64,000 bases of DNA. It comes from a virus. Location: UHGV virus genome UHGV-0033085, one strand, 5' to 3'. Below, one piece after another: positions 3,956 to 63,380 of the stretch; position 1 is the first letter of the stretch; each line of letters starts with the position of its first letter. The notes below the pieces were generated by a model. The model ran no database searches, had not been told where the DNA came from, and saw only the letters and a list, made by a program, of their open reading frames with translations. Position numbers and translations under genes: made by a program.

Positions 3956-3971
3956 GTAAGTACATACTTAC
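3956..3971 (+). promoter_or_regulatory. TAAGTA box (GTAAGTACATACTTAC)
   Basis: Member of the recurrent GATAAGTAAGTA / TAAGTA-N-TACTTA family, 44 nt upstream of ATG 4015. Confidence 0.4.
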
Positions 3972-4014
3972 GATCATAGAATAGAAAAATAACCAATACA
4001 CTACGGAGAGTGAA

Positions 4015-4410
4015 ATGACCGTTAAACGCGAAAAACTGACAGTTGATGTTTACTATGCCTCTGAAACCGCCGAAGGTAAGAATGTGGCAAAAATCACCGT
4101 TGTTACGTACAACACCGAAACTGGTGCCGAAGTCCAGGCCAGTACGATCGTGCGTAAAGGTGATGCCTCCGGCGGCGAGTACGCGACTCAATACCAGTCC
4201 ATTCTCGATGCAACTGACCCGCTGCTGCTGAAAATCGAGAACTACTTCCGCCAGGTTGATGAAGAGGTGTTTGAAACCATGATGAGTATGGTTAATTCCG
4301 TATTCACCTCCAGCCTGAACACCAGCACCACCTGGATTGGCCAGTACGGTCTGCGTATTACCTCCGGCATTCCTGCTGACACCTTAATCCCTGAAAGCGT
4401 ATTCGCTTAA
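4015..4410 (+). CDS. hypothetical protein
   Basis: ORF with ACGGAGAG RBS. Confidence 0.55.
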   Translation: MTVKREKLTVDVYYASETAEGKNVAKITVVTYNTETGAEVQASTIVRKGDASGGEYATQYQSILDATDPLLLKIENYFRQVDEEVFETMMSMVNSVFTSSLNTSTTWIGQYGLRITSGIPADTLIPESVFA

Positions 4411-4419
4411 TCCTCTTTA

Positions 4420-4446
4420 AATGGCGCGTAAACCGCGCCATTTTCT
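4420..4446 (+). terminator. intrinsic terminator
   Basis: AATGGCGCG-taaac-CGCGCCATT hairpin followed by TTTC. Confidence 0.6.
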
Positions 4447-4454
4447 TATGCCCG

Positions 4455-4520
4455 ATAACAATTTGTTTTCTGCCTTTATCTTACTGCGATAATTACAACA
4501 ACAAGAAAACAACGTGTTTA
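4455..4520 (+). promoter_or_regulatory. promoter-operator module: ATAACAattTGTTTT (4455-4469), -10 GATAAT (4488-4493), AAAACAacgTGTTTA (4506-4520)
   Basis: Near-duplicate of the 945-1010 module, including the shared TTTGTTTTCTGCC string. Confidence 0.5.
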
Positions 4521-4537
4521 TTAGGTGGTGAAATAAT

Positions 4538-4690
4538 ATGGAATACATTGTTACTGTCGCTTCGTCAGATCGGGAGTCGTTACTTGAGGCTATCAGAAGC
4601 ATGGAAAACATCATCATGTCAGAGCAGGAGCTTAATGGTTATCTTGAGATGGATGATTTTTCTATCAAAATGGAGGTGAAGAATGACTGA
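4538..4690 (+). CDS. hypothetical small protein (50 aa)
   Basis: Not in ORF track (under 60 aa); AGGTGG RBS; stop overlaps next start (ATGA). Confidence 0.35.
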   Translation: MEYIVTVASSDRESLLEAIRSMENIIMSEQELNGYLEMDDFSIKMEVKND

Positions 4691-4964
4691 CTTCACCATT
4701 ACCCCTAAAGCACAAAATGTATTTCTTGAATCATGGCTGGACTTGCCGGAAACAGAACAGCAAGAAATGGATCATGTGGAATATGACGAGCAGGTAAGCA
4801 CGCGATTCTTCCACTTTGAGGGCTGCGTTTACGACATTGCCGACTTCATGCGAGATGACCGCTTCCCTGAATGGCACGCCAGTTATCCACTAAACGCCTT
4901 CGCCATGCTGATGATCCGTGTGGATGATTCAGGGGATACCATCGACATCGGTCTGCTCCACTAA
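4683..4964 (+). CDS. hypothetical protein
   Basis: ORF track; start overlaps upstream small ORF. Confidence 0.5.
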   Translation: MTDFTITPKAQNVFLESWLDLPETEQQEMDHVEYDEQVSTRFFHFEGCVYDIADFMRDDRFPEWHASYPLNAFAMLMIRVDDSGDTIDIGLLH

Positions 4965-4969
4965 AGAGT

Positions 4970-4993
4970 AAGGCCACCAATGCTGGTGGCCTT
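4970..4993 (+). terminator. conserved GC-rich hairpin AAGGCCACCA-atgc-TGGTGGCCTT (terminator-like, no U-run)
   Basis: Perfect 10-bp stem right after the stop codon; near-identical copy at 6039-6062. Confidence 0.4.
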
Positions 4994-5064
4994 AAATGAC
5001 AACACTTTGCCTTACTTCCTGATAGTAGCCTTATAAATCTTCTTTTTAGCCTATTTCATTCAGC

Positions 5065-5086
5065 GATAATTATCACATCGAAAACA
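5065..5086 (+). promoter_or_regulatory. GATAAT -10 plus AAAACAA half-site
   Basis: Same GATAAT-N10-AAAACA spacing as the other modules but only one half-site. Confidence 0.35.
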
Positions 5087-5101
5087 AACGAGGAATTAAA
5101 A

Positions 5102-6034
5102 ATGAAACCAGTATTTTTGGGACAAATTGACATTAGTGAATTGTTTTCAGTTAAAGATGGGTCCCAATATGACTGTGATTGCCTTGAACTTAATGGTCTT
5201 GAATATGAATACAGATTGGCTATTGTGAATGATGGTAAGAAGACATTTTCTGTCGAATGTTTTAAAAATACTTACTTTAAGCATGTGTTGAGAATAAGAC
5301 AGCGTGTGGAGATGTCAATTCGGGAAAACATCAAAAATAAATGTGAGTTTCTTGCGATTAAAAATGAAATAGATGCAATAAACTTTGTTACGTTCACTGA
5401 TAGTGGTCGATTGGCTATGCTGGAGCTATTTCATCTGATCGTTTCTAATAACAGTATAACAGAAGCCTTGATCAGTCTTTCAACTATAGTATCAAAAGAA
5501 AGAGAACACACTGGCGCTTTAATTGTAGAGAAGCTAGGTGGAATACTCGAGAAGATCAAAAATAAAGAGTTGATTATAGAATATGGCAAGGAAAGTAGAA
5601 AAAATAATTTACATTCAGCTTTTCGTTCCCCATATGTTGAGCGTTTAAATGGTTCGGCATCTTTTGTTAATTTAGAGTTTAATAGATTCTTTAGTTCTCT
5701 TTTTACAGAGTATGGAATTGTTATTGTGGAGGTAAATAATGAGAATGATGTGCCAAAAATCATAGTGCATTCGATGCCGGATATCCCTTTCAATGAGATT
5801 GAGAACAAACTGGAGATTTTAGACGATATAAATACAAAAAGCATGGAAGAACTCATAGAGTATCTGGCCGTAGATGCGGTAGCTATGGCTGATAATGATG
5901 TGTTTGGGGTTGGTGCACTGCATGAAGGCTATCTTGACGCCCTTGAACTTTACGGGACTGCTCGCTGGTTTCTGTCAGGATTAGTGGATGATGCGCCTTT
6001 ACTCATCAATACAGATTATTCTTATTCCAGTTGA
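5102..6034 (+). CDS. hypothetical protein (310 aa), AT-rich gene
   Basis: Long ORF with GAGG RBS; base composition clearly more AT-rich than flanks. Confidence 0.55.
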   Translation: MKPVFLGQIDISELFSVKDGSQYDCDCLELNGLEYEYRLAIVNDGKKTFSVECFKNTYFKHVLRIRQRVEMSIRENIKNKCEFLAIKNEIDAINFVTFTDSGRLAMLELFHLIVSNNSITEALISLSTIVSKEREHTGALIVEKLGGILEKIKNKELIIEYGKESRKNNLHSAFRSPYVERLNGSASFVNLEFNRFFSSLFTEYGIVIVEVNNENDVPKIIVHSMPDIPFNEIENKLEILDDINTKSMEELIEYLAVDAVAMADNDVFGVGALHEGYLDALELYGTARWFLSGLVDDAPLLINTDYSYSS

Positions 6035-6038
6035 AAAC

Positions 6039-6062
6039 AAGGCCACCAGCAGTGGTGGCCTT
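6039..6062 (+). terminator. conserved GC-rich hairpin AAGGCCACCA-gcag-TGGTGGCCTT
   Basis: Second copy of the 4970-4993 hairpin with a different loop. Confidence 0.4.
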
Positions 6063-6203
6063 AAATGACCATCCTGTTTCCCGCAGGCTAAAAACACCAA
6101 CCTCTTACCTCCAGGCAACCGACAAACCCACCTGTTCCCGTCCGGCTACCGCAACTTTCCACTTTGACGCCTTATTCGTACAACGATAATTAACACAAAC
6201 AAG

Positions 6204-6218
6204 AAAACAATTTGTTAT
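6204..6218 (+). promoter_or_regulatory. operator palindrome AAAACAattTGTTAT downstream of GATAAT -10
   Basis: Family member; TTGACG -35-like and GATAAT upstream; GAGGA RBS downstream. Confidence 0.45.
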
Positions 6219-6237
6219 TTACGATGAGGAATTAATC

Positions 6238-6720
6238 ATGAACTTTATCGCTACTGTAAACGCACCCGCACATGGCAATATCGCTGTAACGTTCTCTGAC
6301 ATTGAAAAACGAGTACTTGGTGCATGGCGCGACAATGAGACGGTAGAACTGTCAGCACAAGAAAAATGCATTATTGCACGCGACATCATTGGCAATCGTC
6401 GTTACTCGCGGGTATTTGAGAAAGCGTATGTGGTAAATTCTGGATTCGGAACGTTCGTCTTTCCGGTGCGCTCCGGGCGATTCTGCCAGTCCAAGCTGAT
6501 TGAGTTCGCTACGCAGATTTCTGTCTGGATTAAAACTCAATCGTCGTTCAAATTTTCCGACGATGAAGCAGTATCGCAGGGGATGCGGATCGCCAACAAT
6601 GCGATTAAATGCAAAAACATTACGTATACCGCTGGCGTTGACACATGGAAACTGTTTTGCGCTAACTTTATGCTGAATGTATACGCAAGCAACCGCATCC
6701 ACATCCTTGATGGCGTGTAA
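6238..6720 (+). CDS. hypothetical protein
   Basis: ORF track with RBS. Confidence 0.55.
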   Translation: MNFIATVNAPAHGNIAVTFSDIEKRVLGAWRDNETVELSAQEKCIIARDIIGNRRYSRVFEKAYVVNSGFGTFVFPVRSGRFCQSKLIEFATQISVWIKTQSSFKFSDDEAVSQGMRIANNAIKCKNITYTAGVDTWKLFCANFMLNVYASNRIHILDGV

Positions 6721-6729
6721 CTGAGAAGA

Positions 6730-6750
6730 GGGCCAGAAACGGCCCTTTCT
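6730..6750 (+). terminator. intrinsic terminator
   Basis: GGGCC-agaaac-GGCCC hairpin plus TTTCT. Confidence 0.5.
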
Positions 6751-6769
6751 CTATAGCCACCAGCTGCCG

Positions 6770-6890
6770 CAGGGAAATTTTCAGAAACGGCGAGGAACGT
6801 ATTCATGAGCCGACGGGGAACGGCCAGGATTTTTTCGGGAAACGGCTGCATTCGCCTTTATGTAGAAAAACATCGGGAAGCTGGTGGAAT
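6770..6890 (+). repeat. second iteron-like array (CAGGGAAA / CAGAAACGGC / GGGGAACGGCC / GGGAAACGGCTG / GGGAAGCTGG)
   Basis: Same repeat family as 2597-2733. Confidence 0.5.
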
Positions 6891-6972
6891 CCAACCAGCG
6901 GTTGTCGGACAGGTGAGCGGGGAAAATCATGATGACTTTCGTCGCCTGAGACATCCAGATTTCTTTCGTAGC

Positions 6973-7017
6973 ATAATCACATACGTGATTAAGTGGTGTG
7001 ATTATGTGAAAAATCAC
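6973..7017. repeat. cluster of inverted GTGATT / AATCAC hexamers
   Basis: ATAATCACATACGTGATTAAGTGGTGTGATTATGTGAAAAATCAC; five hexamer copies in 45 bp. Confidence 0.4.
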
Positions 7018-7311
7018 GCGCACATAATACGCGAGCGGATACGGAACAAAACAAAATGCCGATCCGCGCCGACAAATAAACGCGGATCATAAAGCAAGAC
7101 TAAAAGCCAATGATTAACCATACTCTATAGCGCAATATAACGCGTTTTAAGCGCGTTAATATGTTAAGTAATGGGTATGTACTGGTAAGGATATAAAAGC
7201 GCGTCTATGGCGTTATTTTGGCGCTTATTTTTATGTTGTTGGAGTGAGTTAAAGACAATAAAAAACGCGCTAATGATGGCGCGTTATGGTGGGAGTATTG
7301 GAAACGAAAAA

Positions 7312-7330
7312 AGCGCCCATAGTGGGCGCT
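7312..7330 (-). terminator. terminator hairpin AGCGCCCA-tag-TGGGCGCT for the leftward operon
   Basis: Hairpin flanked by A-run and T-run just past the stop of 7336..7566; identical copy at 7820-7838. Confidence 0.55.
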
Positions 7331-7335
7331 CGATT

Positions 7336-7566
7336 TTATTTGTGTAAACTGATTTTAAATCCCATTTCTACAAACGCTTTTAACATTAAAAATATATCAG
7401 CGTCGTTCACGTCTGCTTTTTTTCGCTCCTGGTCGCTCAATAAGTCAATTTTGCGCGTCGTTTCATCTATAAGCTCGACTGCGCGCCCAGCGTAACCAGC
7501 GATCCCAGCGATGCGATTAACATAATATTCATTATGGACGTTAACGCCAGCGATAAGAACAAACAT
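7336..7566 (-). CDS. hypothetical protein
   Basis: ORF track; AAGGAG RBS. Confidence 0.5.
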   Translation of the reverse strand: MFVLIAGVNVHNEYYVNRIAGIAGYAGRAVELIDETTRKIDLLSDQERKKADVNDADIFLMLKAFVEMGFKISLHK

Positions 7567-7586
7567 GATTAAGCTCCTTAAAAAAA

Positions 7587-7802
7587 TTAAATAGAATTTT
7601 GAAGTTTTCCGATTAATGCGCTTAAACGTAAGTATTCACGTTTGCGCTTGCAATCTCGCTTGCTGTTAAGCAAATCAGAAAACGTAAAATTTAATTGGTC
7701 GCGTTGCGCGATCAAATCATCGATTAATTCCAGTTTATAAGCGCGATACTTTGCGCGATACTTTGCGCGATACTTTGCGCGGATCTTGTCATAGCTGACC
7801 AT
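7587..7802 (-). CDS. hypothetical basic protein with AKYR tandem repeat
   Basis: ORF track 7587..7847 shortened to the ATG at 7800-7802, which has an AAGGAG RBS; upstream codons would read through a terminator hairpin. Confidence 0.45.
   Translation of the reverse strand: MVSYDKIRAKYRAKYRAKYRAYKLELIDDLIAQRDQLNFTFSDLLNSKRDCKRKREYLRLSALIGKLQNSI
7741..7782 (-). repeat. 12-bp tandem repeat GCGCGATACTTT x3.5 inside CDS
   Basis: Encodes the AKYRAKYRAKYR segment. Confidence 0.6.
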
Positions 7803-7819
7803 TTTTAAAGCTCCTTTAA

Positions 7820-7838
7820 AGCGCCCATAGTGGGCGCT
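7820..7838 (-). terminator. second copy of hairpin AGCGCCCATAGTGGGCGCT
   Basis: Immediately past the stop of 7851..8501. Confidence 0.5.
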
Positions 7839-7850
7839 TGATTCCATTAA

Positions 7851-8501
7851 TTACGCTTTAAAAGCATCAGCTAAATAATTGTAGAAATCATTCTTGATAA
7901 AGCGATATTGCTGTGTACCAGCTTTGGCGCTTCCCATTCCTTTGACTTTCTCAACAAGTCCGAGACGTTCGCAAAGATTGATTAGCTGGTTAGCTTGAGT
8001 ATAGCCAGCGTCCAATTTAATTTCACACGCTTTTTTAGCTTCATTCATTAAATCGAAAACAGCGCCATTCGTGAACGTGTCGATCTCGTCGTTAATCATA
8101 TCGATTAAAGCGAATACACGAGATCCAGACATATCAGCGATGGAATAAACGCATTTACCAGATTTAATTGATTTAACCAGATAAACCAGTTTTTCCAGTG
8201 AATAACTATTAGTCATAGCATCACGAAAAAATACTTCTGGCGCTTGTTTGCTTGCTTTAATCGCATAGTAGAAAACAGAGCACAATTTTTCGTCTTCTAC
8301 AGCGTTTACAACGTTGTTGATGAAGTAAGCAAGTTTAGTGGTCGCAGCTTGCATATTTGCTTTGTCTGCTTTAGTGTGCGTACCATTTTTATAATGTTCG
8401 TTATATGTTTGAGTTGCTAGATCTGCTTTTTCGCGCAGCTCGTCGGATACAATAGATGCAGCTTCAATGATGGACTTTTTAGAAATGATAATGTTAGCCA
8501 T
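7851..8501 (-). CDS. hypothetical protein (216 aa)
   Basis: ORF track; AAGGAA RBS. Confidence 0.55.
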   Translation of the reverse strand: MANIIISKKSIIEAASIVSDELREKADLATQTYNEHYKNGTHTKADKANMQAATTKLAYFINNVVNAVEDEKLCSVFYYAIKASKQAPEVFFRDAMTNSYSLEKLVYLVKSIKSGKCVYSIADMSGSRVFALIDMINDEIDTFTNGAVFDLMNEAKKACEIKLDAGYTQANQLINLCERLGLVEKVKGMGSAKAGTQQYRFIKNDFYNYLADAFKA

Positions 8502-8763
8502 GATTTTATTCCTTAGTATAAATATTAAAATTTAACTCAAGAAAGAAAGTGTTTTGCACTCGTTCCTGATGCGTTCAATTATCGACACGCGAAAAAAGAT
8601 TGCAAGTATTTTTTTAAGTTTTTTGCAGGGATGAAAGTCCTAGAAATAAAAGCGAGATCGTCGAAGGTGTTCCCTAAATAAATAATAAATTCCGGCTTTT
8701 GACCTTATATATTTATACGGGGGAGAATTGAATGAGTGTTAAACGAATGGCATGTAAAATAAT

Positions 8764-8781
8764 AACCGGACTTAGCCGGTT
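8764..8781 (-). terminator. terminator hairpin AACCGG-acttag-CCGGTT
   Basis: Hairpin with T-run on the minus strand, just past the stop of 8798..9316. Confidence 0.5.
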
Positions 8782-8797
8782 ATTACCCTTATAGAAA

Positions 8798-9316
8798 TTA
8801 AAACGGAAGGATTCGTTCAACCCAATCGAAGAAAATAAGTATTTTTCTGCCGTCTTCCAACTTAAGTGTGACTAGACAGGCGTCAACGCCATCTGACGTT
8901 CCCTCAATTTCGCGACCGTCTGCCATGTAGACCCTTATAGATTTGCCGTTTTGGTAAGCCTGACGACATATCTTAAAAAAGTCACGACGTGATGGCTGAT
9001 TAACCATCTGTTCATTGTTTAGCGTTAGTCGACCTGTGAATGAAGTGTCAACCTCTTCTATGCCCGACTCAATTGTGCTAATGCGCTCAAGAGGGAGCCT
9101 TACACGATTTGTGTTGCTAAACGGATCTGGTGTGAGGTTCAGCTTATTTCTTGCGCTCAACAGCCCGTAGACATACATGCAAAACACTTGGCCGTCTTCG
9201 AGAGTGACTCTTACAGGAAATTGAGCACTCCGCCAGAAGAGCAAGGTGCGCTCAGCATGTTCGTAGTCTCGCGGCCAGACTTCAGCCGGTATGCCGTAGG
9301 TGATGTCTTTAACCAT
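8798..9316 (-). CDS. hypothetical protein
   Basis: ORF track. Confidence 0.5.
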   Translation of the reverse strand: MVKDITYGIPAEVWPRDYEHAERTLLFWRSAQFPVRVTLEDGQVFCMYVYGLLSARNKLNLTPDPFSNTNRVRLPLERISTIESGIEEVDTSFTGRLTLNNEQMVNQPSRRDFFKICRQAYQNGKSIRVYMADGREIEGTSDGVDACLVTLKLEDGRKILIFFDWVERILPF

Positions 9317-9418
9317 AGTCTACCTTTTTAAGTCTTTTTTGGTCATTATATACATCTCTATGATGCGTAGACAGACTAACCGTACATTCCACCAAAAATT
9401 GATTATGGAATAAGTTTC

Positions 9419-10219
9419 ATGAAGAATGGGGTGAATAAAAAATACTCATTAGCATTGTTAATAGCGGCTTTACTATTAACAGGTTGTGATTCTGATGAAG
9501 AGCGAGCCATAGATCTAGTTGAAAAGGATATTCGCTCTACACTGCCAGATCCTGATGCTGGTCGGTTCACGAATATGCGAGCTATTCAGTTAGGTGAAAA
9601 TAGCTATTCATATATGGTATGTGGAGAGGTGAATGGTAAAAACGTCTTGAACGCCTATACAGGTGCGACCGCATTCAATGCACACATCTTTGATGTTCGT
9701 GAACGTAACCCGATTGTATTCGTTGCAATGGATAAAAGTACCAACTCGGCAAGAGAACGATTACGTTTTGAACGCCAAAATCTAGCATGTAAAGAAAATG
9801 GTGTGAAACTTTATCTGGAAAACGAATCTAAAATCAGGAAGGAAAAAGAGAAAATAGATGATTTAAAAAAAACTCCATTAGGTCAGGCTGTGTTTGATGC
9901 TGCAAGTGATTCGACATATGTGAGTAGAGAGTTGGGCGAATCGAGAGGTGTTAGTGAAGTGTATGCAAGAGAAAATGATAAATATGCTCTTGTTAGCGTC
10001 ACCAATTATGACACTCCTGACTTTTACAAATTTAGGAAAAAAGACAACGGTGAACTAGAACCTGTTAGGGGACTGTCTTATACCGGCTATCCATTCGCGG
10101 TTACACTGTGCCATTCTGAACAAACAGATTATGACAAATGTATAACAGAAGAAGAAATCAAGTTGCTTCGAGACGAAAAGAATAAGCTCGATGATTTTGT
10201 CGTGCCACCAGAAGAATAA
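9419..10219 (+). CDS. putative lipoprotein
   Basis: N-terminal signal with lipobox LLTGC. Confidence 0.6.
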   Translation: MKNGVNKKYSLALLIAALLLTGCDSDEERAIDLVEKDIRSTLPDPDAGRFTNMRAIQLGENSYSYMVCGEVNGKNVLNAYTGATAFNAHIFDVRERNPIVFVAMDKSTNSARERLRFERQNLACKENGVKLYLENESKIRKEKEKIDDLKKTPLGQAVFDAASDSTYVSRELGESRGVSEVYARENDKYALVSVTNYDTPDFYKFRKKDNGELEPVRGLSYTGYPFAVTLCHSEQTDYDKCITEEEIKLLRDEKNKLDDFVVPPEE

Positions 10220-10280
10220 TATATACAAAATATTTAATTGCTGTTAATATTTAATTGTTCAGACATAGGGAAAGCCCGAA

Positions 10281-10312
10281 CCCTCGACAAATCTTTCTGA
10301 TATTGTCGAGGG
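10281..10312. terminator. bidirectional terminator hairpin between convergent genes
   Basis: CCCTCGACAA-N12-TTGTCGAGGG, perfect 10-bp stem. Confidence 0.55.
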
Positions 10313-10331
10313 TATGCTTCCAAGTGATGAG

Positions 10332-10706
10332 CTACTTATACCCTAATTCTTTACAGCTTTCTTCAAAAACCTCTTTAGGTAGGATATTTAGATCTACAAT
10401 AGTGTTGCTGTTCTTGGTTAACACGTCATTGTAAGGAATTTGTACCCATCTGTAACCTGTATACCCACCATATGAGTTAGTCGCATTTAGTTTGAAACAA
10501 TATGTATTGCTACCTTCAACGTGATCTGGGAATTTGTATTTAGCTGCATCCGGGGCCAGTAATTGTTTTTCTATAATATTTTTAATGTAATCTTGCTGAA
10601 CGGGCGTTAAAGGTTTGGCTACTGTATTTCCTATATAGAATGCCAAGAATGCCATAGAAAAAAATTGAATTTTTTTAGACTTCATCTTTTTAACCGTCTT
10701 TGACAA
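10332..10706 (-). CDS. secreted hypothetical protein
   Basis: Predicted N-terminal signal peptide; AT-rich. Confidence 0.5.
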   Translation of the reverse strand: MSKTVKKMKSKKIQFFSMAFLAFYIGNTVAKPLTPVQQDYIKNIIEKQLLAPDAAKYKFPDHVEGSNTYCFKLNATNSYGGYTGYRWVQIPYNDVLTKNSNTIVDLNILPKEVFEESCKELGYK

Positions 10707-10713
10707 TGAGAGT

Positions 10714-11289
10714 TTATGAGCGTTTGTTGAGCAGATCTACAATCAGCTTTTGAGGTGTATTTTCCTCTTTTGTCTTAGGTAATCCATTCTGAGGTAGCGT
10801 CGATAGTCTGTTCTTATCTCCTCTAGGTAACTCAAGCCTTTTCTTGATCTGCACAATAAGTTCCCATAGACTGTCTTCGTTCTCAACCTTTATAGAGTAG
10901 CCTACGCCACAATATGAATCACTTTTTAAGCGATTGTGAATTTTGAACGTATTGAAGTTTGAGCTTAACTGAATATATCCAGGGGTAATACCATCTATAT
11001 TTTCGATCACAGGGAGTATTTCTTTTATCTGGAAAGGGAAAATGACCAATGAATAATCATCTCGTCTTTCCTCATTGTCTGGTGAAATTAAATAAATGTA
11101 GTAAGGGTTGTTTTTTGAATAAGATTCTCGTAATGCTGAACTCTTTCCGAAGTAGAAACCTTTAGCGTGAATTTTATCTTTCGTTTCTTTCCCCCGTTGT
11201 ATCTGAATGTTACTTTCGCTAAGTGTCCCATTTGATACATATGAAGCTTTATCCAATATCGTGTGAAGTTGTGTATTTGAAAGAGCCAT
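10714..11289 (-). CDS. hypothetical protein
   Basis: ORF track; same leftward operon. Confidence 0.5.
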   Translation of the reverse strand: MALSNTQLHTILDKASYVSNGTLSESNIQIQRGKETKDKIHAKGFYFGKSSALRESYSKNNPYYIYLISPDNEERRDDYSLVIFPFQIKEILPVIENIDGITPGYIQLSSNFNTFKIHNRLKSDSYCGVGYSIKVENEDSLWELIVQIKKRLELPRGDKNRLSTLPQNGLPKTKEENTPQKLIVDLLNKRS

Positions 11290-11433
11290 TAGCTATCCCT
11301 TCGACCAAACTCAGCGATGAAGCCTACAAATATCATTCAGCCAATCAAGAATTTTTTTCAGCCGGAGGTGTGCACTTCAAAAAATGTGATGAATGTCACA
11401 TGCAGGTGCTCTCATACACCTGCATGTAGACTA

Positions 11434-12000
11434 TTAATCATTCAATAATCTATATTTTCTTTTGATTAAATCTTCACCTTTTTTGGTGAACACAAAACCA
11501 AATTGCGATTTTTTGTTCAGCCTAAGGACTCTGTTATCCAACGCATCGGTTGATGGAATCAATGTTTGATCATCTATCCAATTTAGTAGCGTAAGAAAGT
11601 TCAACAGCCTCAACGTTGTTGTGCGAAGCTCTTTCGATATATTTTCAATGCTGGCAATTCGTCTTTCTTTTTTCTCAGGTGGTACAGATAATTGTTCTTG
11701 AGGTTTCGTGGATAGATAATCAATTTCGTTTGCAGCATCGAATGATATGTGTGGCGTTATTTTGCTAAAAAAGCCTTTCGCTGACTCACTTGATAATAAA
11801 CCAGACCTATTCATATCGTTTGTTATTCTGTACAGGAGTGGACTGTGTTTCATTTCAGGATAACGTTGATAAAAGTTAAGCAATTCAAAAGCAGCATTAG
11901 CGCCAACAAGAAAATCAGAAGGATCGCTGACTTTCCAGAAAGAATGATTTTTCTTAGCGCCAGTGGTGTCAACAAATGATAATTCTTTTAACCAACTCAT
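11434..12000 (-). CDS. hypothetical protein
   Basis: ORF track 11434..12033; ATG at 12000 has an AAGGAG RBS. Confidence 0.5.
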   Translation of the reverse strand: MSWLKELSFVDTTGAKKNHSFWKVSDPSDFLVGANAAFELLNFYQRYPEMKHSPLLYRITNDMNRSGLLSSESAKGFFSKITPHISFDAANEIDYLSTKPQEQLSVPPEKKERRIASIENISKELRTTTLRLLNFLTLLNWIDDQTLIPSTDALDNRVLRLNKKSQFGFVFTKKGEDLIKRKYRLLND

Positions 12001-12065
12001 GATGTGCTCCTTTCTAACAAGTGAGCACATCATAGAATTAGTAGATAGGGGGTAAATATGAAATG

Positions 12066-12344
12066 TTACGGCAACCTGCTCAGTATTTCCTCTAAATCTT
12101 TTTTTGTCATATTGGAGTTTTCATAGATGCGCATGATTTTCTCACGCGTCTTAGCGGAAACCCCAACGGCAGATGTGACTTTGTCAAATTCAGCCATAGT
12201 CATCGTCTCCAGAATGGCATTGATAACTTCAGCCTTAGACATCTTGATTTTTTTCTCTTTGAGTTTTATTTGAAATTTTCCAAGTTTTTCATTGGCCTTA
12301 TCAGACAATGCCACTTGGCAATAAGTTGTTTTTTTTTCGCTCAT
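12066..12344 (-). CDS. hypothetical small lysine-rich protein
   Basis: ORF track; immediately downstream of the helicase gene. Confidence 0.45.
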   Translation of the reverse strand: MSEKKTTYCQVALSDKANEKLGKFQIKLKEKKIKMSKAEVINAILETMTMAEFDKVTSAVGVSAKTREKIMRIYENSNMTKKDLEEILSRLP

Positions 12345-12346
12345 AA

Positions 12347-13906: not shown

Positions 13907-13949
13907 AAACCTCTTTCCTTAGTGCCTTTTGTATGTTATTTGGCTATTA

Positions 13950-13969
13950 TAATAAGTAAGTGATTACTT
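13950..13969. promoter_or_regulatory. TAAGTA box (AATAAGTAAGTGATTACTTA) in divergent promoter region
   Basis: Palindromic family member between the leftward helicase operon and the rightward ParB-like gene. Confidence 0.4.
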
Positions 13970-13970
13970 A

Positions 13971-50534: not shown

Positions 50535-50549
50535 AAAACAATTTGTTTA
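50535..50549 (+). promoter_or_regulatory. operator palindrome AAAACAattTGTTTA upstream of helicase gene
   Basis: Family member followed by AAGGAAA RBS. Confidence 0.45.
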
Positions 50550-53185: not shown

Positions 53186-53206
53186 ATAAGTAGATGATTA
53201 CTTATC
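53186..53206. promoter_or_regulatory. TAAGTA box, palindrome ATAAGTAGATGATTACTTATC
   Basis: Palindromic family member 40 nt upstream of ATG 53247. Confidence 0.4.
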
Positions 53207-54055: not shown

Positions 54056-54067
54056 GATAGGTAAGTA
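54056..54067 (+). promoter_or_regulatory. TAAGTA box (GATAGGTAAGTA)
   Basis: Family member 12 nt upstream of ATG 54079. Confidence 0.4.
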
Positions 54068-54078
54068 CAAGATTATTT

Positions 54079-56700: not shown

Positions 56701-56722
56701 GATAAGTATTTACTTACTTATC
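56701..56722. promoter_or_regulatory. TAAGTA box, palindrome GATAAGTA-tttact-TACTTATC
   Basis: Perfect 8-bp arms at the start of the non-coding tRNA region. Confidence 0.4.
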
Positions 56723-56896
56723 TTTTGTGTATAAGATGACTTTGTTTTCGTTGAGACGCGACTGTTTGAACTTAAATACAAGTGCAAACGAAGAAGTCTA
56801 TCTGGCAGTAGCCTAATAAGCCAAACACCAGCGAGGTCAGTTTCCAGCCTCGTTACCGAAATGGGACACACTGAGCGAGTGTGATTGCAGAACGCA

Positions 56897-57544: not shown

Positions 57545-57549
57545 ATTTA

Positions 57550-57636
57550 GGGGAGTTAGTCCGTAGAGGTAGCGGTGTAGACTGTAAATCTACTGTCATG
57601 GCGACTCGGGTGGTTCGACTCCATCACTCCCCACCA
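57550..57636 (+). tRNA. tRNA-Tyr (anticodon GTA), type II
   Basis: Acceptor GGGGAGT/ACTCCCC, anticodon stem GTAGA/TCTAC with loop CTGTAAA, long variable arm, TTCGACT T-loop, encoded CCA. Confidence 0.8.
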
Positions 57637-57640
57637 AATT

Positions 57641-57716
57641 GCCGGTTTAGCTCAGTTGGTAGAGCGCCTGCCTTGTAAGCAGGATGTCAGCGGTTCGAGT
57701 CCGTTAACCGGCACCA
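57641..57716 (+). tRNA. tRNA-Thr (anticodon TGT)
   Basis: Acceptor GCCGGTT/AACCGGC, GCTC/GAGC D-stem, anticodon stem CCTGC/GCAGG with loop CTTGTAA, TTCGAGT T-loop, CCA. Confidence 0.85.
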
Positions 57717-57717
57717 A

Positions 57718-57806
57718 CACAACAGGTAAGTGCATTGGGCGAATCGGCGATACTGACCCACAAGCCCGTAAATCGATAGAGTCAGACCAGTGCTCTTACC
57801 GTTGTG
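57718..57806 (+). repeat. long stem-loop element C (CACAACAGGTAAG ... CTTACCGTTGTG)
   Basis: 12-bp arms around about 64 nt, immediately after tRNA-Thr. Confidence 0.55.
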
Positions 57807-57857
57807 AGGAAGTGCAGCTCTTTGAGGCAACCAGAAGATAAGCATCTGGCTTCACAA

Positions 57858-57936
57858 CACAACGATAAGATCATTACGGTTAATCGTCGTTCATGTGCAC
57901 AATGACTGGTCGAAAGGTAGTGATCTTACCGTTGTG
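57858..57936 (+). repeat. long stem-loop element D (CACAACGATAAGA ... TCTTACCGTTGTG)
   Basis: 13-bp arms with one mismatch around about 53 nt. Confidence 0.55.
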
Positions 57937-58080
57937 GTGGATTCGCAGACTGATGCGATAGCTTTCTTGGATGTTAGGGAAATGCGGCCGCAAATCTTCC
58001 CTTTCGCGAGCGGTGATCGTCCGTAGTCCTAATTGGCTGCACCGTATGCCGGAGATTCAGTACCGGCCACCACAACGGCC

Positions 58081-58167
58081 GGAGAGTAGGGAGCATGGTG
58101 CTCAAGCGGTCTTGAAAACCGTCCCATTGCGCAAGCGATGATGGTTCGATTCCATTACTCTCCGCCA
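58081..58167 (+). tRNA. tRNA-Ser (anticodon TGA), type II
   Basis: Acceptor GGAGAGT/ACTCTCC, anticodon stem GCGGT/ACCGT with loop CTTGAAA, 17-nt variable arm, TTCGATT T-loop, discriminator G, CCA. Confidence 0.8.
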
Positions 58168-58740: not shown

Positions 58741-58982
58741 CGATCACTATCTACGGATGAGATAACTGCTCATACTGCAAACGTGCGGTCGAGCTGGCGA
58801 AGCAACTAAAGGGACATGGCTACGGTGATTATGAGTACATCGACATCACCACTGCCGGTATCAACAAGGAAAAACTAAGTGAAATTGTTGGTAAACCGGT
58901 AGAGACTATCCCCCAAGTGCTGATCGATGGCCAACCGATTGGCGGATACACAGAACTGGCTGCATACGTCAGCACCCTCTGA
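58737..58982 (+). pseudogene. Grx1-like glutaredoxin interrupted by in-frame TGA at codon 8 (58758-58760)
   Basis: Translation MTITIYG*DNCSYCKRAVELAKQL...GKPVETIPQVLIDGQPIGGYTELAAYV has the glutaredoxin fold signature; the stop sits where Grx1 has the Arg of GRSGCPYC. Confidence 0.6.
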
Positions 58983-59061
58983 TTTTAACGGCTCACAGGA
59001 GCCGTTTTTATTCCCACCAAACTCACTCCCGTTTCCCTTAAAATTCAAAAAACAACGTCAA

Positions 59062-59192: not shown

Positions 59193-60296
59193 ATGAAAAA
59201 TAGCTTTGACAGAGCACGCGCTGCGGAGAACACCTCAAAAGAGGCGATTGAGTATCTCGAAAGAGCATCTCAAATGCAGGCCGTTATGATCTCCCAGGTC
59301 AGCAATGACATGAGATTCTCGGACGCATTCATGTTATTCACTCGCTTATCTCTGCTGATAACAAGACGTCGGCCAGAGATCGCTGTTCATTGTATTTTGA
59401 TACATGTTTTGCCGCACATTGCCGATGTAAAAGTAAGTGACATTAATAGGTTCATGGTGAACCAACTGGTCAACCCACTAATACTGGATGGCAAAATTGT
59501 TATGGGCCGCCGCGTTTTCTCTCTGATGAAGCAGTTCCTTAGCTGGTGCGCCTTCCAGGGGATGATAGACGTGTCACCGTTAAACGATATGTCACTTAAC
59601 AAAGTTGCCGGTGGCGCAAAGCCCACACCTCGCGAGCGGAAGCTGACCGACGCAGAGGTATGGGTGTTCTGGAATATATGGGACTACTTCAATGTGTGCG
59701 CTGGTACAAAATGGGCGGCCAGGCTGTGTCTTGTATCCGCAAGACGACCTGACGAAGTACTGCGTGCTAAAAAAAGTGAGTTCAATCTTAAGCGTGGGGT
59801 TTGGAATCAAGGCAAGAGGAACAAATCTGCCCGTGAGCATTCGCTGCCTTTAAGCACATTAATGCGCACATGTATTGAAGAGTTGTTCGAATACGGTAAA
59901 GGCAGCCAGTGGCTCGTGCCTTCGAATAAAAAAATCGGGAAAGACCTTCCTATGTCTAAAGTGGCAATAGCCCAGGCATTACGTCGTATTCTGGAACGAC
60001 CAGAACTGATGGAGCTTGAGCCATTTACACCCCGAGACTTGCGCCGTACTGCGCGTAGTTACTTCCCAGCATTAGACATAAGCCAGGAGGTATCACGCAA
60101 AATCATGAACCACAGTCTTGAGGGGATAGATCGAGTCTACGACCGGCACGATTATATGGACGAGATGCGAGACGCCTTAGAAAGTTTCTCGACGTACATC
60201 GCATCAATCGTAGAGCAACCGGATTTAGACGAAATTGACCACAAATTCAAGGGAGATCGTCTATCAACAGAGCTTATTCGTGTAAATTTTTCATAG
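59193..60296 (+). CDS. tyrosine recombinase / phage integrase
   Basis: Conserved LVSARRPDEV, TPRDLRRTA and VYDRHDYMDE blocks consistent with the R..H-x-x-R..Y catalytic signature. Confidence 0.8.
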   Translation: MKNSFDRARAAENTSKEAIEYLERASQMQAVMISQVSNDMRFSDAFMLFTRLSLLITRRRPEIAVHCILIHVLPHIADVKVSDINRFMVNQLVNPLILDGKIVMGRRVFSLMKQFLSWCAFQGMIDVSPLNDMSLNKVAGGAKPTPRERKLTDAEVWVFWNIWDYFNVCAGTKWAARLCLVSARRPDEVLRAKKSEFNLKRGVWNQGKRNKSAREHSLPLSTLMRTCIEELFEYGKGSQWLVPSNKKIGKDLPMSKVAIAQALRRILERPELMELEPFTPRDLRRTARSYFPALDISQEVSRKIMNHSLEGIDRVYDRHDYMDEMRDALESFSTYIASIVEQPDLDEIDHKFKGDRLSTELIRVNFS

Positions 60297-60677
60297 AGAC
60301 TTTATGGCCTCAACAACCTTTTGTGATGCGCCTTTCTCTTTACCGAATCGCTCGTTATATGCAGCAAGAACCTGTTTTTCGTCCTCGTTAAGAGGAGCGG
60401 TGCCTTCTTTGTATAAAAATGCTGCGAGTTCAGGTTGGCGTTCTTCCAGCACCATCATCATAAGACGACTTGGCTCAATACCCAGCGCCAGCGCCAACGG
60501 ACGAACCTTATCGATAGGCAAAGGAATTTTGCCACTTTTAATTAAAGAAAGGTTGTTGGCATTTTTATAACCAATAAGTCTGGCTATTTGGGCCTGACTC
60601 ATAGGTGAGGATTCAATCAGCCCTGCGATAAAAGCAGCATAGCGACTTTCTATAAATTCAATCTTGTTGTCAGACAT
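60291..60677 (-). CDS. XRE-family helix-turn-helix regulator
   Basis: HTH segment MSQAQIARLIGYKNANNLSLIKSGK; convergent with integrase. Confidence 0.7.
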   Translation of the reverse strand: MSDNKIEFIESRYAAFIAGLIESSPMSQAQIARLIGYKNANNLSLIKSGKIPLPIDKVRPLALALGIEPSRLMMMVLEERQPELAAFLYKEGTAPLNEDEKQVLAAYNERFGKEKGASQKVVEAIKSL

Positions 60678-60708
60678 TGTTACAACCTTTGCGCGTTCAA
60701 TTCTCTCT

Positions 60709-60722
60709 GGTAAGTGCTTACC
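60709..60722. promoter_or_regulatory. palindrome GGTAAGtgCTTACC upstream of the XRE regulator gene
   Basis: Perfect 6-bp arms 32 nt upstream of the regulator start; further GGTAAG / CTTACC copies follow in the AT-rich divergent region. Confidence 0.4.
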
Positions 60723-60927
60723 GATATTACATCAAAGGTTAGGGTTGTAAAGCTATTATCATTTTTTCGATAGGCACTTAAAAGACCGGTTAAAGGCCAT
60801 TGCACGGAGAAAAATTAGCCCAAAACAGGTAAGAAAATTAACTTGCATATGATATGAATGTATTCAGTATTGATATAAATTTTAGTAGTATTCCTTACCA
60901 TAGTATAAGTTAGAATGGATTGATTGA

Positions 60928-61140
60928 ATGAACACCACTATTTCCAGCCTAATCGCTCTTGAGATCGGACACGTACAGAAATTAGCTGATGAGTGTGTAG
61001 CTGACATCCTCACCGATCTACCGAATGAGCAGATTCAGGTTGGTGTGAATGACACAACTGGCTTTATATTCGAACTTAACAACAAACGCTTCACGCTTCT
61101 CAATATCGGCTCCGGGTCTTTAGCCGTCAGAATCTGTTAA
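60928..61140 (+). CDS. hypothetical small protein
   Basis: ORF track; no clear RBS. Confidence 0.3.
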   Translation: MNTTISSLIALEIGHVQKLADECVADILTDLPNEQIQVGVNDTTGFIFELNNKRFTLLNIGSGSLAVRIC

Positions 61141-61152
61141 CCCCTCTTCTCC

Positions 61153-61185
61153 CTGCGCGAATGGCTTAGTTCCCTGTTCGCGCAG
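61153..61185 (+). terminator. hairpin CTGCGCGAA-N15-TTCGCGCAG (possible terminator)
   Basis: 9-bp perfect stem, no U-run. Confidence 0.35.
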
Positions 61186-61206
61186 TGCTACATTAAACAC
61201 AGTAGT

Positions 61207-61221
61207 AAATAATTTGTTTTC
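61207..61221 (+). promoter_or_regulatory. degenerate operator AAATAAtttGTTTTC upstream of vWA gene
   Basis: Right half-site matches the AAAACA-N3-TGTTTT family; followed by AAGGA RBS. Confidence 0.3.
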
Positions 61222-61238
61222 ATAACAAAGGATTAGCC

Positions 61239-63347
61239 ATGTCTAAAAAACGTTCCATCAAAGAGGTTCAGGACTTCCGTGACAGTGTAAAACGAGTAGT
61301 CGCTCTCCTTTCAGGTAAAAACATCCCTGTTGCAGAACGAGGGGACGACGCTTATGTACGCTATAACGATGATGGAGAGCCAATTCTCGTAAACATCCCA
61401 TCAATCCCGGATAACGCAACACCGGCATTGATGAATGCTGTGCGCGGATTTCTCGATCATGAGGTTGCTCACATTTTGTTTACCGATATTCGTGTGTCCA
61501 ACAAAATGAGAGAAAAAGGACGCGTTCCTTCCTGGTCGCTATGGAATGCCTTAGAAGACGTGTTCATCGAGCGAAAAATGGGTCAGGTCTTTAACGGAAC
61601 AAGACGTAATCTGATGGCAACTCAGCGCCTTATAATCGAAAAAGTCTTTAAACCAAAGGCTTCAGAGGCTATTGCTTATTGTGGCAAAGATCAGCGCGCG
61701 CTTTTTCTAAACTTCTTTCTCTGTCCGGTTGTAAGAGCCTGGGATGGCCAAGCACCGTTCGTAGATTTCATGGATGAACATTGGCCTGTCATTGAGAAAC
61801 CAATTTCATTATTAAAAGAACATGGTATCGATGTGGCCGTGCGTAACATGTCTTGCACCGAGGATTGTGTAAAGGTGGCTGCGACCATAGCTAAGATCCT
61901 CAAAGACACTGAAAGTGAAAGCAAAGGTAAGGAGTCAGCTCCGGGAAAAACTTCCGATCCTTCAGACGCTGACCAGACGGATGCCTCTGGAGAAAACAAT
62001 GAAGACAACGAAGATCATGAGACACCCTCAGCGTTAGATAATCACAAATCTATCAAATCAGAATCACATAGTAAGTACAAACATGATAATAACGACAGTG
62101 ATGATTCAGATAATTCTGAATCATCAGAAACAATATTCGATGATACAGAAAATGATAAAGAGGTATCAGATTCTGATGCTTCTGATAACGCGGCGTCAGA
62201 ATCATTAACCGCTGACCACGAAAAAAGAAAAACGACAGAAGACGGCTCTTCAGATATCCCAACTCCGTCAAAAATGAGTCTGGAAGAGGCTTTAGAGGAG
62301 TTGGATAGCATGGAAGATGAAGTCGGAGGCATGACAGAAGATGCGCTATCCGAAACGATTAAAAGCGAGTTAACAGAAAGCTCGAAAAGCGAATACAGGC
62401 CATACAATCGCTCATACGACTTCATCGGCTCGATTGATCAGGCAGAAGCCCATATCAAACGGCTTATTAAAACATTCTCCGATATTGATTTGGGAGGATA
62501 TCCAATCAGCCGCTATCGCATCGTTCCTGAAGGCAACCAGCTCTTCGACAAATATATTGAAAAGCATCTTTCGTCAGGTGTTTCGTCGACGCTGGCAAAA
62601 GACCTGGAGCGAGCAATAGCAAGCAGAAACAGAGTTCAGTTTATACCGGGCCAGCGTCGGGGGCGCATTCATGGTTCTAGTATCTACAGATTAGCAATGA
62701 ATGATGCTCGCGTGTTTCGTAAAAAAGAAGAATCTAAAGCCGTTAACGCCTGTGTTCAACAAGTGATTGATTTATCAGGTTCAATGAGTGGTATAACGAT
62801 TAAACTGGCTCTTGCAAGTGCATATACCATCGCCGATGCCCTTGATCGAATAAATGTTCCCAACATTATCACCGGCTTCACTACATTTGGTAGTCATATG
62901 GCGGCAGGAGAACTTAAGGCTGTCAAGTATGAGTTCTCTCGCTTTGAATCTTTAATGCTACCTATCATCAAAAATTGGAATGAAAAGGTAAATTCTCGCG
63001 AAGTTCGCTCACGTATGGGGTGCGTAGGCTACACATTCCCACTTCTTAATAACGTGGATGGTGAAAGCATAGCCAGCCTTGCATCGTTATTTTCCGGTCG
63101 CTTGGAGGACAGGAAGATCATGCTTGTTCTGAGTGATGGCGCGCCGTGGGCTGTTGGGAGAGGTTTTGACGCTCATTTGCGTTCAGTTGCGAAGCAAATT
63201 GAAACGCAGACTGATATTGATTTGATGGCAATTGGCATCATGACTGACGCACCGGAGAGATTTTACTCAAATCATGCCCTGGTAACGAGCGTTGATAGTC
63301 TTGGTTCATCTGTAGTTACTGAACTATCTCGTATCATTTTAAAGTGA
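61239..63347 (+). CDS. von Willebrand factor A domain protein with acidic linker (CobT-like)
   Basis: MIDAS-like DLSGSMSG motif; long D/E/S-rich acidic segment. Confidence 0.7.
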   Translation: MSKKRSIKEVQDFRDSVKRVVALLSGKNIPVAERGDDAYVRYNDDGEPILVNIPSIPDNATPALMNAVRGFLDHEVAHILFTDIRVSNKMREKGRVPSWSLWNALEDVFIERKMGQVFNGTRRNLMATQRLIIEKVFKPKASEAIAYCGKDQRALFLNFFLCPVVRAWDGQAPFVDFMDEHWPVIEKPISLLKEHGIDVAVRNMSCTEDCVKVAATIAKILKDTESESKGKESAPGKTSDPSDADQTDASGENNEDNEDHETPSALDNHKSIKSESHSKYKHDNNDSDDSDNSESSETIFDDTENDKEVSDSDASDNAASESLTADHEKRKTTEDGSSDIPTPSKMSLEEALEELDSMEDEVGGMTEDALSETIKSELTESSKSEYRPYNRSYDFIGSIDQAEAHIKRLIKTFSDIDLGGYPISRYRIVPEGNQLFDKYIEKHLSSGVSSTLAKDLERAIASRNRVQFIPGQRRGRIHGSSIYRLAMNDARVFRKKEESKAVNACVQQVIDLSGSMSGITIKLALASAYTIADALDRINVPNIITGFTTFGSHMAAGELKAVKYEFSRFESLMLPIIKNWNEKVNSREVRSRMGCVGYTFPLLNNVDGESIASLASLFSGRLEDRKIMLVLSDGAPWAVGRGFDAHLRSVAKQIETQTDIDLMAIGIMTDAPERFYSNHALVTSVDSLGSSVVTELSRIILK

Positions 63348-63363
63348 ACAAAACAGCCTTAAC

Positions 63364-63380
63364 GATAAGTAACCACTTAC
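63364..63380 (+). promoter_or_regulatory. TAAGTA box (GATAAGTAACCACTTAC)
   Basis: Family member 60 nt upstream of ATG 63443. Confidence 0.35.

Follow-up and report, generated by a model that had tools for sequence, protein, structure and literature searches.

A prophage repressor with many operators is a well-known kind of system. The described example closest to the subject of this report, a palindrome that recurs between the genes of UHGV virus genome UHGV-0033085 (64,000 nucleotides, hereafter the window), is the C1 repressor of P1, an enterobacterial plasmid prophage in which one repressor acts at many operators scattered over ~100 kb and heading lytic units that include replication. C1 binds asymmetric 17-mers and is itself not of the XRE type; the late operons of P1 are not directly under C1 but depend on the activator Lpa. 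P1 comprises at least 45 transcription units (PMC10695390).

On balance, the account of the palindrome favored here is that it is the operator of a dimeric helix-turn-helix regulator encoded by the element itself, most likely its 128-residue XRE-type prophage repressor (60291-60677, - strand), in which case the regulatory logic would be analogous to that of P1 C1 or of the LexA regulon. As in P1, a single repressor of an enterobacterial plasmid prophage would serve many sites; unlike in P1, these sites are true dyads and they also head late units. As with LexA and the lambdoid CI-Cro pair, the site is a dyad of ~20 bp with a presumed helix-turn-helix dimer as its binder, it lies over the -35 hexamer, the spacer, the -10 hexamer or position +1 of promoters, and one copy stands on the regulator's own promoter. 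Unlike those systems, the dyad is unrelated to the LexA box, the repressor lacks the S24 cleavage domain (none was found in a protein-family search), and the operators are far more numerous than those of lambdoid phages and include late operons.

By sequence comparison the window is an SSU5/pHCM2/pMT1-type phage-plasmid. It is ~97% identical to Escherichia phage Cyrano (96.8%, pLF82, over window positions 19000-34000, where identity to Salmonella phage SSU5 is 81%) and collinear with Cyrano across most of its length, with a few replaced segments interrupting. Nearly all genes are on the + strand: those for packaging, head, tail and lysis occupy 17.6-46.5 kb and those for replication 49.8-55.9 kb, while an integrase and repressor pair lies at 59.2-60.7 kb; four tRNAs and cobT/cobS-like genes are also encoded. 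Homologues of TerL were found in 1037 plasmid records, including Yersinia pestis pMT1 and Salmonella Typhi pHCM2, and homologues of the repressor in 961; members of the family also occur on many Klebsiella, E. coli and Acinetobacter plasmids.

An earlier note on this DNA, made from the letters alone, described a recurrent box, GATAAGTAAGTA, upstream of at least 14 genes, and its recurrence is real and far above chance. The sequence ATAAGTARGTA occurs exactly six times in the window against 0.05 expected, the palindrome TAAGTANNTACTTA 24 times with up to two mismatches against 1.85 expected, and 8-mers derived from the box are among the most over-represented words of the window; when the 10-mers of intergenic DNA in Cyrano and SSU5 were counted without bias, ATAAGTAAGT and TAAGTACTTA ranked at the top. 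Thirteen of the 14 cited places carry a dyad; the copy cited for the start at 21099 (position 21078) is only a half-site, and the full dyad lies 100 nt upstream of 21099, at 20981-20998. The box is one half of a symmetric palindrome of 18-20 bp, a predicted protein-binding site. When every TARGTA of Cyrano and SSU5 was considered in context, all copies fitted one fixed dyad, TARGTAAGT/RCTTAYCTA (the slash marks the center), often extended to aTGATA...TATCAt; the full unit is aTGATARGTAAGT/ACTTAYCTATCAt and the 18-20 bp consensus ATARGTAAGT/ACTTAYCTAT. The variable spacing TAAGTA-N2-6-TACTTA of the earlier note is an artefact of the TAAG periodicity, since the one fixed dyad fits all sites.

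A symmetric weight matrix of 26 nt, which converges on ATGATAAGTAAGTACTTACTTATCAT, was used with a threshold of 12 bits. It found 23 positions in the window against 0.43 in shuffled sequence and 42-43 in each of the Cyrano and SSU5 genomes against 0.1-0.4. The 23 window positions resolve into 18 non-overlapping sites, or 16 after two that belong to a separate large palindrome are set aside; with that class removed, each genome has 26-27 non-overlapping dyads. The sites are intergenic or touch a gene end in 25 of 27 cases in Cyrano and 24 of 26 in SSU5 (p ~1e-20), in genomes that are 87-88% coding. The box had been said to keep the same orientation, which does not hold for a palindromic motif in which the left half outscores the right at 11 sites and the reverse is true at 16 in Cyrano, and at 14 and 12 sites in SSU5 (Wilcoxon p = 0.6 and 0.9); directionality resides in the flanking promoter DNA, not in the motif. 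The distance from dyad to start codon is variable: dyads of the window lie 3-63 nt ahead of it, that of the tRNA block 749 nt, and in Cyrano and SSU5 the dyad center is mostly 11-170 nt from the next start codon, with a few sites far from any start. Some start codons of the earlier note were misplaced, and mapping to Cyrano moves 13971 to 13989, 33038 to 33005 and 22964 to 22979; the GC hairpins that it placed after several copies are present, at 22925, 32993-33015 and 39900-39920.

The two halves of the dyad behave as separate protein half-sites on duplex DNA. Over 49 sites, the 13 symmetric position pairs read on the coding strand comprise 352 Watson-Crick combinations, 53 of G·U type, 52 of A·C type and 82 others, and the variable R/Y positions of the two halves combine near independence (27 Watson-Crick pairs against ~22 expected). 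Pairing in an RNA hairpin would permit G·U but select against A·C, so the equality of the two classes points to a site for a protein dimer on DNA and not to an RNA hairpin. A search of Rfam matched only tRNAs and nothing at the dyad.

The dyad is conserved throughout the family. A scan of IMG/VR for TAGGTAAGNNCTTACCTA returned 44 loci on viral contigs, of which 41 are SSU5-like with 2-8 dyads per 10 kb, bearing out the view that the box is not chance AT-rich sequence. In alignments of orthologous intergenic regions, the dyad is an island of conservation amid diverged or replaced sequence at the TerL/portal, capsid, tail, holin, Dam and ParB junctions. A distant relative in Acinetobacter baumannii, whose TerL is 59% identical, has ~32 dyads that read TCAGTCAGT/ACTGACTGA and stand at matching junctions (TerL/portal, after the capsid gene, before the holin gene, UvsW/ParB, and before the SbcD, ThyX and DnaB genes), the second base of every 4-nt unit being changed from the A of the enteric dyad to C. 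The relative in Aeromonas has 37 matches to TCAGTAANNNNTTACTGA with up to three mismatches, against 0-5 in shuffles, and its sites read TCAGTAAryayTTACTGA, a hybrid of the enteric and Acinetobacter forms. Half-sites of TAAG-TAAG (enteric), TCAG-TCAG (Acinetobacter) and TCAG-TAAr (Aeromonas) go with the predicted recognition helices YKNANNLSLIKSG, FKRPNVLSMIKSG and FAANQTSMLSMIKKG, respectively; three motif variants thus accompany three helix variants, in few independent events and among lineages whose other proteins also differ.

Such concerted change at conserved positions indicates a co-evolving binder encoded by the element, not a host factor. The dedicated factor at the starts of transcription units that the earlier note proposed is therefore upheld by letters that change together at the same junctions in Acinetobacter and Aeromonas, while the kinds of factor named there (a polymerase, a sigma factor or an RNA-processing activity) are not. 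A host factor is an unlikely binder because the motif is confined to this family of elements and changes with the lineage of the element. Among host sites that were compared, the LexA box CTGT-N8-ACAG does not match the dyad consensus ATARGTAAGTACTTAYCTAT, and the Fur box resembles only the outer GATAA...TTATC, a likeness that the Acinetobacter variant removes.

The dyads are associated with sigma-70-like promoter sequences. Matches to such sequences are depleted relative to shuffles within 20001-60000 of the window, with 9 against 22.8 expected in the structural region at 20-40 kb and 11 against 30.5 in the replication region, and are not depleted in 1-20000 (35 against 34). Yet three of the five + strand matches at 20-40 kb coincide with dyads (20974-21002, 26461-26490 and 32961-32989), as does a further match at 3954-3982. 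Over the whole genome, overlap with a promoter-like site (at least 9/12) is seen for 12 of 26 dyads against 4.5-5.7 expected when the flanks alone are shuffled, and the overlapping promoters point mostly in the direction of the gene; in the Acinetobacter relative the overlap is 18 of 31 against 8.8 expected. Dyad centers lie at -27.5, -22.5, -19.5, -13.5, -8.5 and +1.5 relative to the predicted transcription start, at ~-31 in extended -10 promoters and at ~-42.5 ahead of the holin gene, and the aggregate profile of -10 sequences 0-45 nt downstream of the dyads has no peak. Without a single distance to the -10 hexamer, the dyad is not a fixed promoter module; its position on or between recognizable sigma-70 hexamers is the arrangement of an operator. 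Varied overlapping positions are allowed by steric repression, whereas an activator must as a rule keep to one face of the DNA and one distance.

The candidate binder is the product of the 60291-60677 gene, equivalent to CYRAN_45, which is annotated as a putative repressor in Cyrano and whose relatives are annotated as XRE-family regulators. It has a clear PHROG match to transcriptional regulators and a sub-threshold Pfam helix-turn-helix match (18.9 bits, cut-off 30.2); a PDB sequence search for the identity of the binder gave no match, and no function was assigned to the other small candidate proteins by Pfam or PHROGs. The promoter of the gene (60751-60724, - strand, TTTACA-16-TAATAT) is followed directly by the dyad GGTAAGTGCTTACC (60707-60724), the outer part of which is weak and the inner part perfect, at approximately +1 to +16. 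The block formed by TTTACA, the spacer and TGTAATAT, then C(G/A)GTAAGyACTTACCA, is kept in the window, Klebsiella, pMT1 and pHCM2; the repressors of the latter three are 57-65% identical to the window protein and keep the presumed recognition helix YKN(A/P)N(N/I)LSLIK. In a more divergent Klebsiella element, whose repressor has 47% identity and the helix FENANNISLIKSG, the TAAGTA half-sites are kept and two dyad-like sites precede the gene. This element and the Acinetobacter and Aeromonas relatives each have their own lineage's dyad upstream of the homologous repressor gene, so that in every repressor-bearing lineage examined a dyad lies at the start site of the repressor promoter or upstream of the homologous gene. 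One report describes SSU5 as virulent (PMC5427195); its annotation shows neither an integrase nor a repressor in the interval from the tRNA gene to the cobT homologue, and its dyads are kept.

Divergent from the repressor gene is a small gene (60928-61140, + strand) for a 70-residue protein of an unknown PHROG family. Transcripts of its orthologue, CYRAN_46, are ~90-fold more abundant in macrophages at 6 h than in LB (log2 10.8 against 4.3). Its product might be a Cro-like candidate that shares the dyads.

That the XRE-type protein is the binder, and that it represses by binding, is predicted from these sequence patterns. The ~27 dyads per genome would lie on or beside sigma-70 promoters that head the lytic units for packaging, head, tail, lysis, replication, recombination and nucleotide metabolism, and in the plasmid-prophage state bound repressor would occlude these promoters. 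Through the one dyad on the promoter of its own gene, the repressor would limit its own synthesis. At junction dyads that have no promoter of their own, the repressor could conjecturally act as a roadblock. Inactivation of the repressor, for example after DNA damage, would free all the units at once. A stronger and more specific version holds that one small XRE repressor directly gates every lytic unit of a ~105-kb phage-plasmid, including all head, tail and lysis operons, through ~27 dyads on ordinary sigma-70 promoters, with a half-site of two tandem 4-bp units (TAAG-TAAG) that has been re-tuned unit by unit (TCAG-TCAG in Acinetobacter, TCAG-TAAr in Aeromonas); this version is put forward tentatively and is rather unlikely as it stands. 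If it is true, the late genes would need no phage activator or antiterminator.

Expression values are available from RNA-seq of strain LF82 carrying Cyrano (PMC9928086 S1 Table). In LB, the repressor gene CYRAN_45 is expressed at 96 against a median of 9.8, and 21 of the 24 first genes after a dyad are at background in the lysogen. Where the gene upstream of a dyad is on, expression drops by 2 to 7.7 log2 across the dyad. The mean step across dyads in the lysogen is zero or below and gives no sign of promoter activity, as would be expected of silent sites whether they are repressed or simply lack activation. Four dyads mark an upward step in expression in macrophages at 6 h, those at Cyrano 9019 (+2.5 log2), 34731 (+2.4), 57447 (+3.6) and 59400 (+3.65); the dyads at 9019, 57447 and 59400 overlap a promoter-like site with two hexamers, and that at 34731, where a step of +1.9 to 3.4 log2 is seen in all five conditions, is followed by an extended -10. 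The steps fit real promoters that are normally silent, and these data alone do not separate de-repression from activation. CYRAN_43, by far the top-expressed Cyrano gene in the lysogen (723-fold over background), is missing from the window (58960-59044).

Several observations weigh against repression by the XRE protein. Its link to the dyad is suggested by their joint occurrence, by a placement that fits autoregulation and by one or two changes of specificity. An operon of two genes for proteins with a ParB N-terminal domain (13989-15337) also has an upstream dyad in the three lineages checked, enteric, Acinetobacter and Aeromonas. About half of the dyads have no recognizable sigma-70 hexamers, and the dyads at 19474, 49753 and 54058 lie only 3-13 nt ahead of a start codon, where it is difficult to see how a promoter could be repressed. 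The center of the holin dyad at ~-42.5, with a strictly conserved distance to an extended -10, is classic activator geometry; the dyad at Cyrano 78478, orthologous to a site beyond the window, is centered at ~-43.5, and the lysogen expresses CYRAN_81, the gene downstream of it. Reads in the lysogen likewise come from the tRNA region that follows the best-scoring dyad, and differences in growth phase confound the RNA-seq comparisons. It would also be unusual, for a temperate phage of a well-studied type, if a repressor acted directly on all late operons and positive late control were absent (PMC10695390). Some of the same features suit a protein of the lytic cycle, either an activator or a two-way switch that turns on the middle and late units and shuts off the repressor gene through its promoter start site, and such a protein is a possible though less probable binder. 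Every late unit is headed by a dyad, and the late genes of well-studied phages are positively controlled (PMC10695390); many dyads have no usable -35 and stand where an activator could replace it, some being centered at approximately -20 to -31 with an extended -10, and the 18-nt gap at the holin dyad is conserved across lineages. The expression of CYRAN_81, the rise of dyad-headed units in macrophages at 6 h, and the perfect dyads of SSU5, in which no repressor is annotated, could be explained in the same way. The likeness would be to phi29 p4 or to P1 Lpa, which binds a 9-bp inverted repeat at each of 11 late promoters, at ~-22; as there, many promoters along the genome have an inverted repeat between the places usual for the -35 and the -10. 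The repeat here differs in being 18-20 bp long, often accompanied by a usable -35, variable in position, not restricted to late genes and present on the repressor promoter. Late promoters strictly of the Lpa type, with a repeat fixed at ~-22, no -35 and late genes only, were rejected since the gap from dyad to -10 varies from 6 to 22 nt, usable -35 hexamers occur at several sites and genes other than late ones are served. The individual gaps to a recognizable -10 (6, 8-11, 14-15 and 21-22 nt) would put an activator on opposite faces of the helix; several dyads are at +1 or inside good promoters with 17-bp spacers that are expected to fire unaided (TTGAAA-17-TATGAT, TTTACA-17-TAGTAT, TTGTAA-17-TAGAAT), and those 3-13 nt ahead of an ATG leave no room for a downstream -10. 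The protein-family matches include no candidate activator, and no homologue of Lpa is annotated in Cyrano or SSU5, in which no sequence search with Lpa was made.

The two ParB-N-domain proteins invite another comparison, in which the dyads would be dispersed sites, parS-like or KorB-like, of one of these proteins and would function in partition, global silencing or both. KorB on RK2, with 12 OB palindromes and global silencing at many promoters, and the scattered centromeres of N15 are precedents, and the dyad is likewise a palindrome of about parS length, present in tens of copies around the plasmid at many promoters and found immediately upstream of the ParB-like operon in all three lineages. 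This explanation is nonetheless improbable, and ParB was rejected as the lysogenic binder, because expression of CYRAN_119, the first of the ParB-like genes, does not rise above the detection floor (log2 2.32) in LB cultures of the lysogen, the very state in which partition or silencing would be needed. The proteins match only the N-terminal domain of ParB, and ParA is encoded elsewhere behind a different upstream motif; the dyads occupy core promoters, not the DNA ahead of the -35 as in RK2, and placement in promoter spacers and at the exact boundaries of units is unnecessary for partition, for which a separate large palindrome in three copies is the better centromere candidate. The earlier note had suggested a directional, element-specific promoter for a phage RNA polymerase or an alternative sigma factor, with a late activator or an mRNA processing site as its other options. 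Such a promoter would agree with the depletion of sigma-70-like sites in the late region and with a box that, as read on the coding strand, recurs a short way ahead of genes in the early as well as the late region, but the motif is symmetric with no orientation bias and keeps no fixed distance to a -10 or a start codon, it occurs on the - strand repressor promoter downstream of the -10, and the 123 annotated genes of Cyrano include no RNA polymerase or sigma factor (by annotation only), so that this reading has become very improbable. Restriction to late genes was not borne out either, as dyads also precede genes for replication, recombination and nucleotide metabolism and the repressor gene. 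A signal at the RNA level, whether a hairpin or a processing site in the mRNA, is the least probable of all: the palindrome is often near a ribosome-binding site and beside GC hairpins, but its loop would be just 2-4 nt and its stem AU-rich, its mismatch classes are balanced (53 against 52, with 82 other), with no strand-specific tolerance of G·U and no excess of compensatory pairs, Rfam has no match to it, and copies of it are found past a - strand promoter and in promoter spacers. Repression by the XRE-type protein stays the favored reading of the sites described below.

The dyad at 3953-3970, with a perfect 14-bp core TAAGTACATACTTA at 3957-3970, lies in the spacer of TTGTAA-17-TAGAAT (3954-3982), just downstream of a terminator hairpin and upstream of the 4015-4410 gene, and is conserved at Cyrano 96687 and SSU5 93166. 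That at 13953-13970 occupies the divergent region between a UvsW-like helicase gene (12347-13906, - strand) and the first ParB-N-domain gene (13989-14669, + strand), with orthologues at Acinetobacter 60733 and Aeromonas 109223. At the TerL/portal junction, the first three bases of the 19474-19491 dyad are the TerL stop codon and its end is 11 nt ahead of the portal ATG; it is kept in 15 distinct orthologous sequences, Acinetobacter 67375 and Aeromonas 102016 being its counterparts, while the spacer to the ATG varies. Within the 3′ end of the portal gene, the 20981-20998 dyad fills the spacer of TTGAAA-17-TATGAT (20974-21002; 10/12 matches) and is identical at Cyrano 3528 and SSU5 3545. The dyad at 22900-22917 begins 9 nt past the stop codon of the major capsid gene and is followed by a terminator-like hairpin (22925-22945). 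Upstream of the tail protein gene that starts at 26544, the center of the 26475-26492 dyad (Cyrano 9019) forms the -10 of TTGAAT-18-TATACT (26461-26490). Between this dyad and the ribosome-binding site of the tail gene (26493-26543), each lineage has a different short hairpin-forming sequence in the same place, followed by the strictly conserved TTAACGGAAAAAGGAGTTTTCC, and the region may be a conserved leader structure. The 32965-32982 dyad is in the spacer of TGGATA-17-TATTAT (32961-32989), ahead of the hairpin at 32993-33015 and the minor tail gene at 33005, and the 39880-39897 dyad lies between a J-like tail gene and the tail fiber gene (39942), with the hairpin at 39900-39920 after it.

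Upstream of the holin gene (45086), the 45005-45022 dyad, whose center is at ~-42.5, is separated from an extended -10 (TGATATAAA) by a gap that is 18 nt in eight of eight orthologous sequences and differs in sequence among them. The 49753-49770 dyad (Acinetobacter 100058) is 13 nt ahead of the 49784 gene, the first of the DnaB helicase/primase block. The 53187-53204 dyad (Cyrano 34731), upstream of the 53247 gene, spans approximately -40 to -22; an extended -10 (TGTAAGAAT) comes 9 nt further on. At 54058-54075, 3 nt ahead of the 54079 gene of the ligase block, only the left half is strong. The highest score of the window, 32.4 bits, belongs to the 56703-56720 dyad at the head of the tRNA region, which overlaps a -35-like TTTACT (56709-56714) located 17 nt ahead of TAAGAT (56732-56737); the window has four tRNA genes against three annotated in Cyrano (window 57546-58081). 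A lower-scoring dyad (62035-62052, 14.2 bits) is inside the cobT-like gene and is also found at Cyrano 43933 and SSU5 43662 (17.8 bits). Between the cobT-like and cobS-like genes, 63366-63400 comprises a dyad (63366-63383; Acinetobacter 6976), with TATAAT 5 nt beyond its inner palindrome, and a second, AT-rich match.

Other repeated elements accompany the dyads. A second recurrent intergenic element, tTAAACACnnAAGAAAACAAnTTGTTTaa, has a core with 33 strand-matches against 4.8 expected and ~20 copies per genome; in the window the copies are at 945-958, 996-1009, 3067-3080, 3552-3565, 4455-4468, 4506-4519, 6204-6217, 17509-17522, 17534-17547, 47605-47618, 50535-50548 and 61206-61219. Its flanks are directional, unlike those of the dyad, and it lies mostly 23-47 nt ahead of start codons, among them those of the TerS, ParA, DnaB and cobT-like genes and of numerous small ones; some copies are paired 51 bp apart around a -10 of TGnGATAAT. 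The element may be a second operator or a 5′-leader signal. At 8798-9316 (- strand) is a gene, conserved in both SSU5 and Cyrano, whose product is homologous over its full length to the phase-1 flagellin repressor FljA (Pfam PF03614, E = 6.7e-69). FljA acts on the fliC mRNA leader, which makes this product a candidate binder of tTAAACACnnAAGAAAACAAnTTGTTTaa. The large palindrome set aside above is imperfect, ~100 bp long (GTCTGGG...CCTGCTTCTGTATATATAAATAATAAGTAAnTTATTAAATATATACGGAAGCAGG...CCCAGAC) and present in three copies per genome, at 17395-17500 and 49585-49690 in the window and at Cyrano 78060-78170, with related copies in SSU5; the end of the deposited Cyrano record lies at the center of the first copy. 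Its AT-rich center resembles a dyad half-site and thereby produces false matrix matches; a packaging site, a centromere and an origin are all possibilities. Just upstream of the DnaB-like helicase gene, the Acinetobacter and Aeromonas relatives have an Hfq homologue, behind a dyad in Acinetobacter, and the enteric elements have an unrelated gene in the same position.

Phage-plasmids of the SSU5/pHCM2/pMT1 type are common, and resistance genes are often carried by phage-plasmids as a class, according to one account (PMC9600943). The searchable literature, with subscription-journal work outside the search, has no description of the motif or of lysis-lysogeny control in these elements; the specific regulon, its reach over the late operons and the unit-wise specificity variants appear to have been undescribed so far. 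The dyad map provides a concrete regulon, a candidate repressor and ~27 units per genome that are predicted to be controlled, and the natural specificity variants make the switch directly testable. The map could also aid the prediction of immunity groups and of inducibility among such elements.

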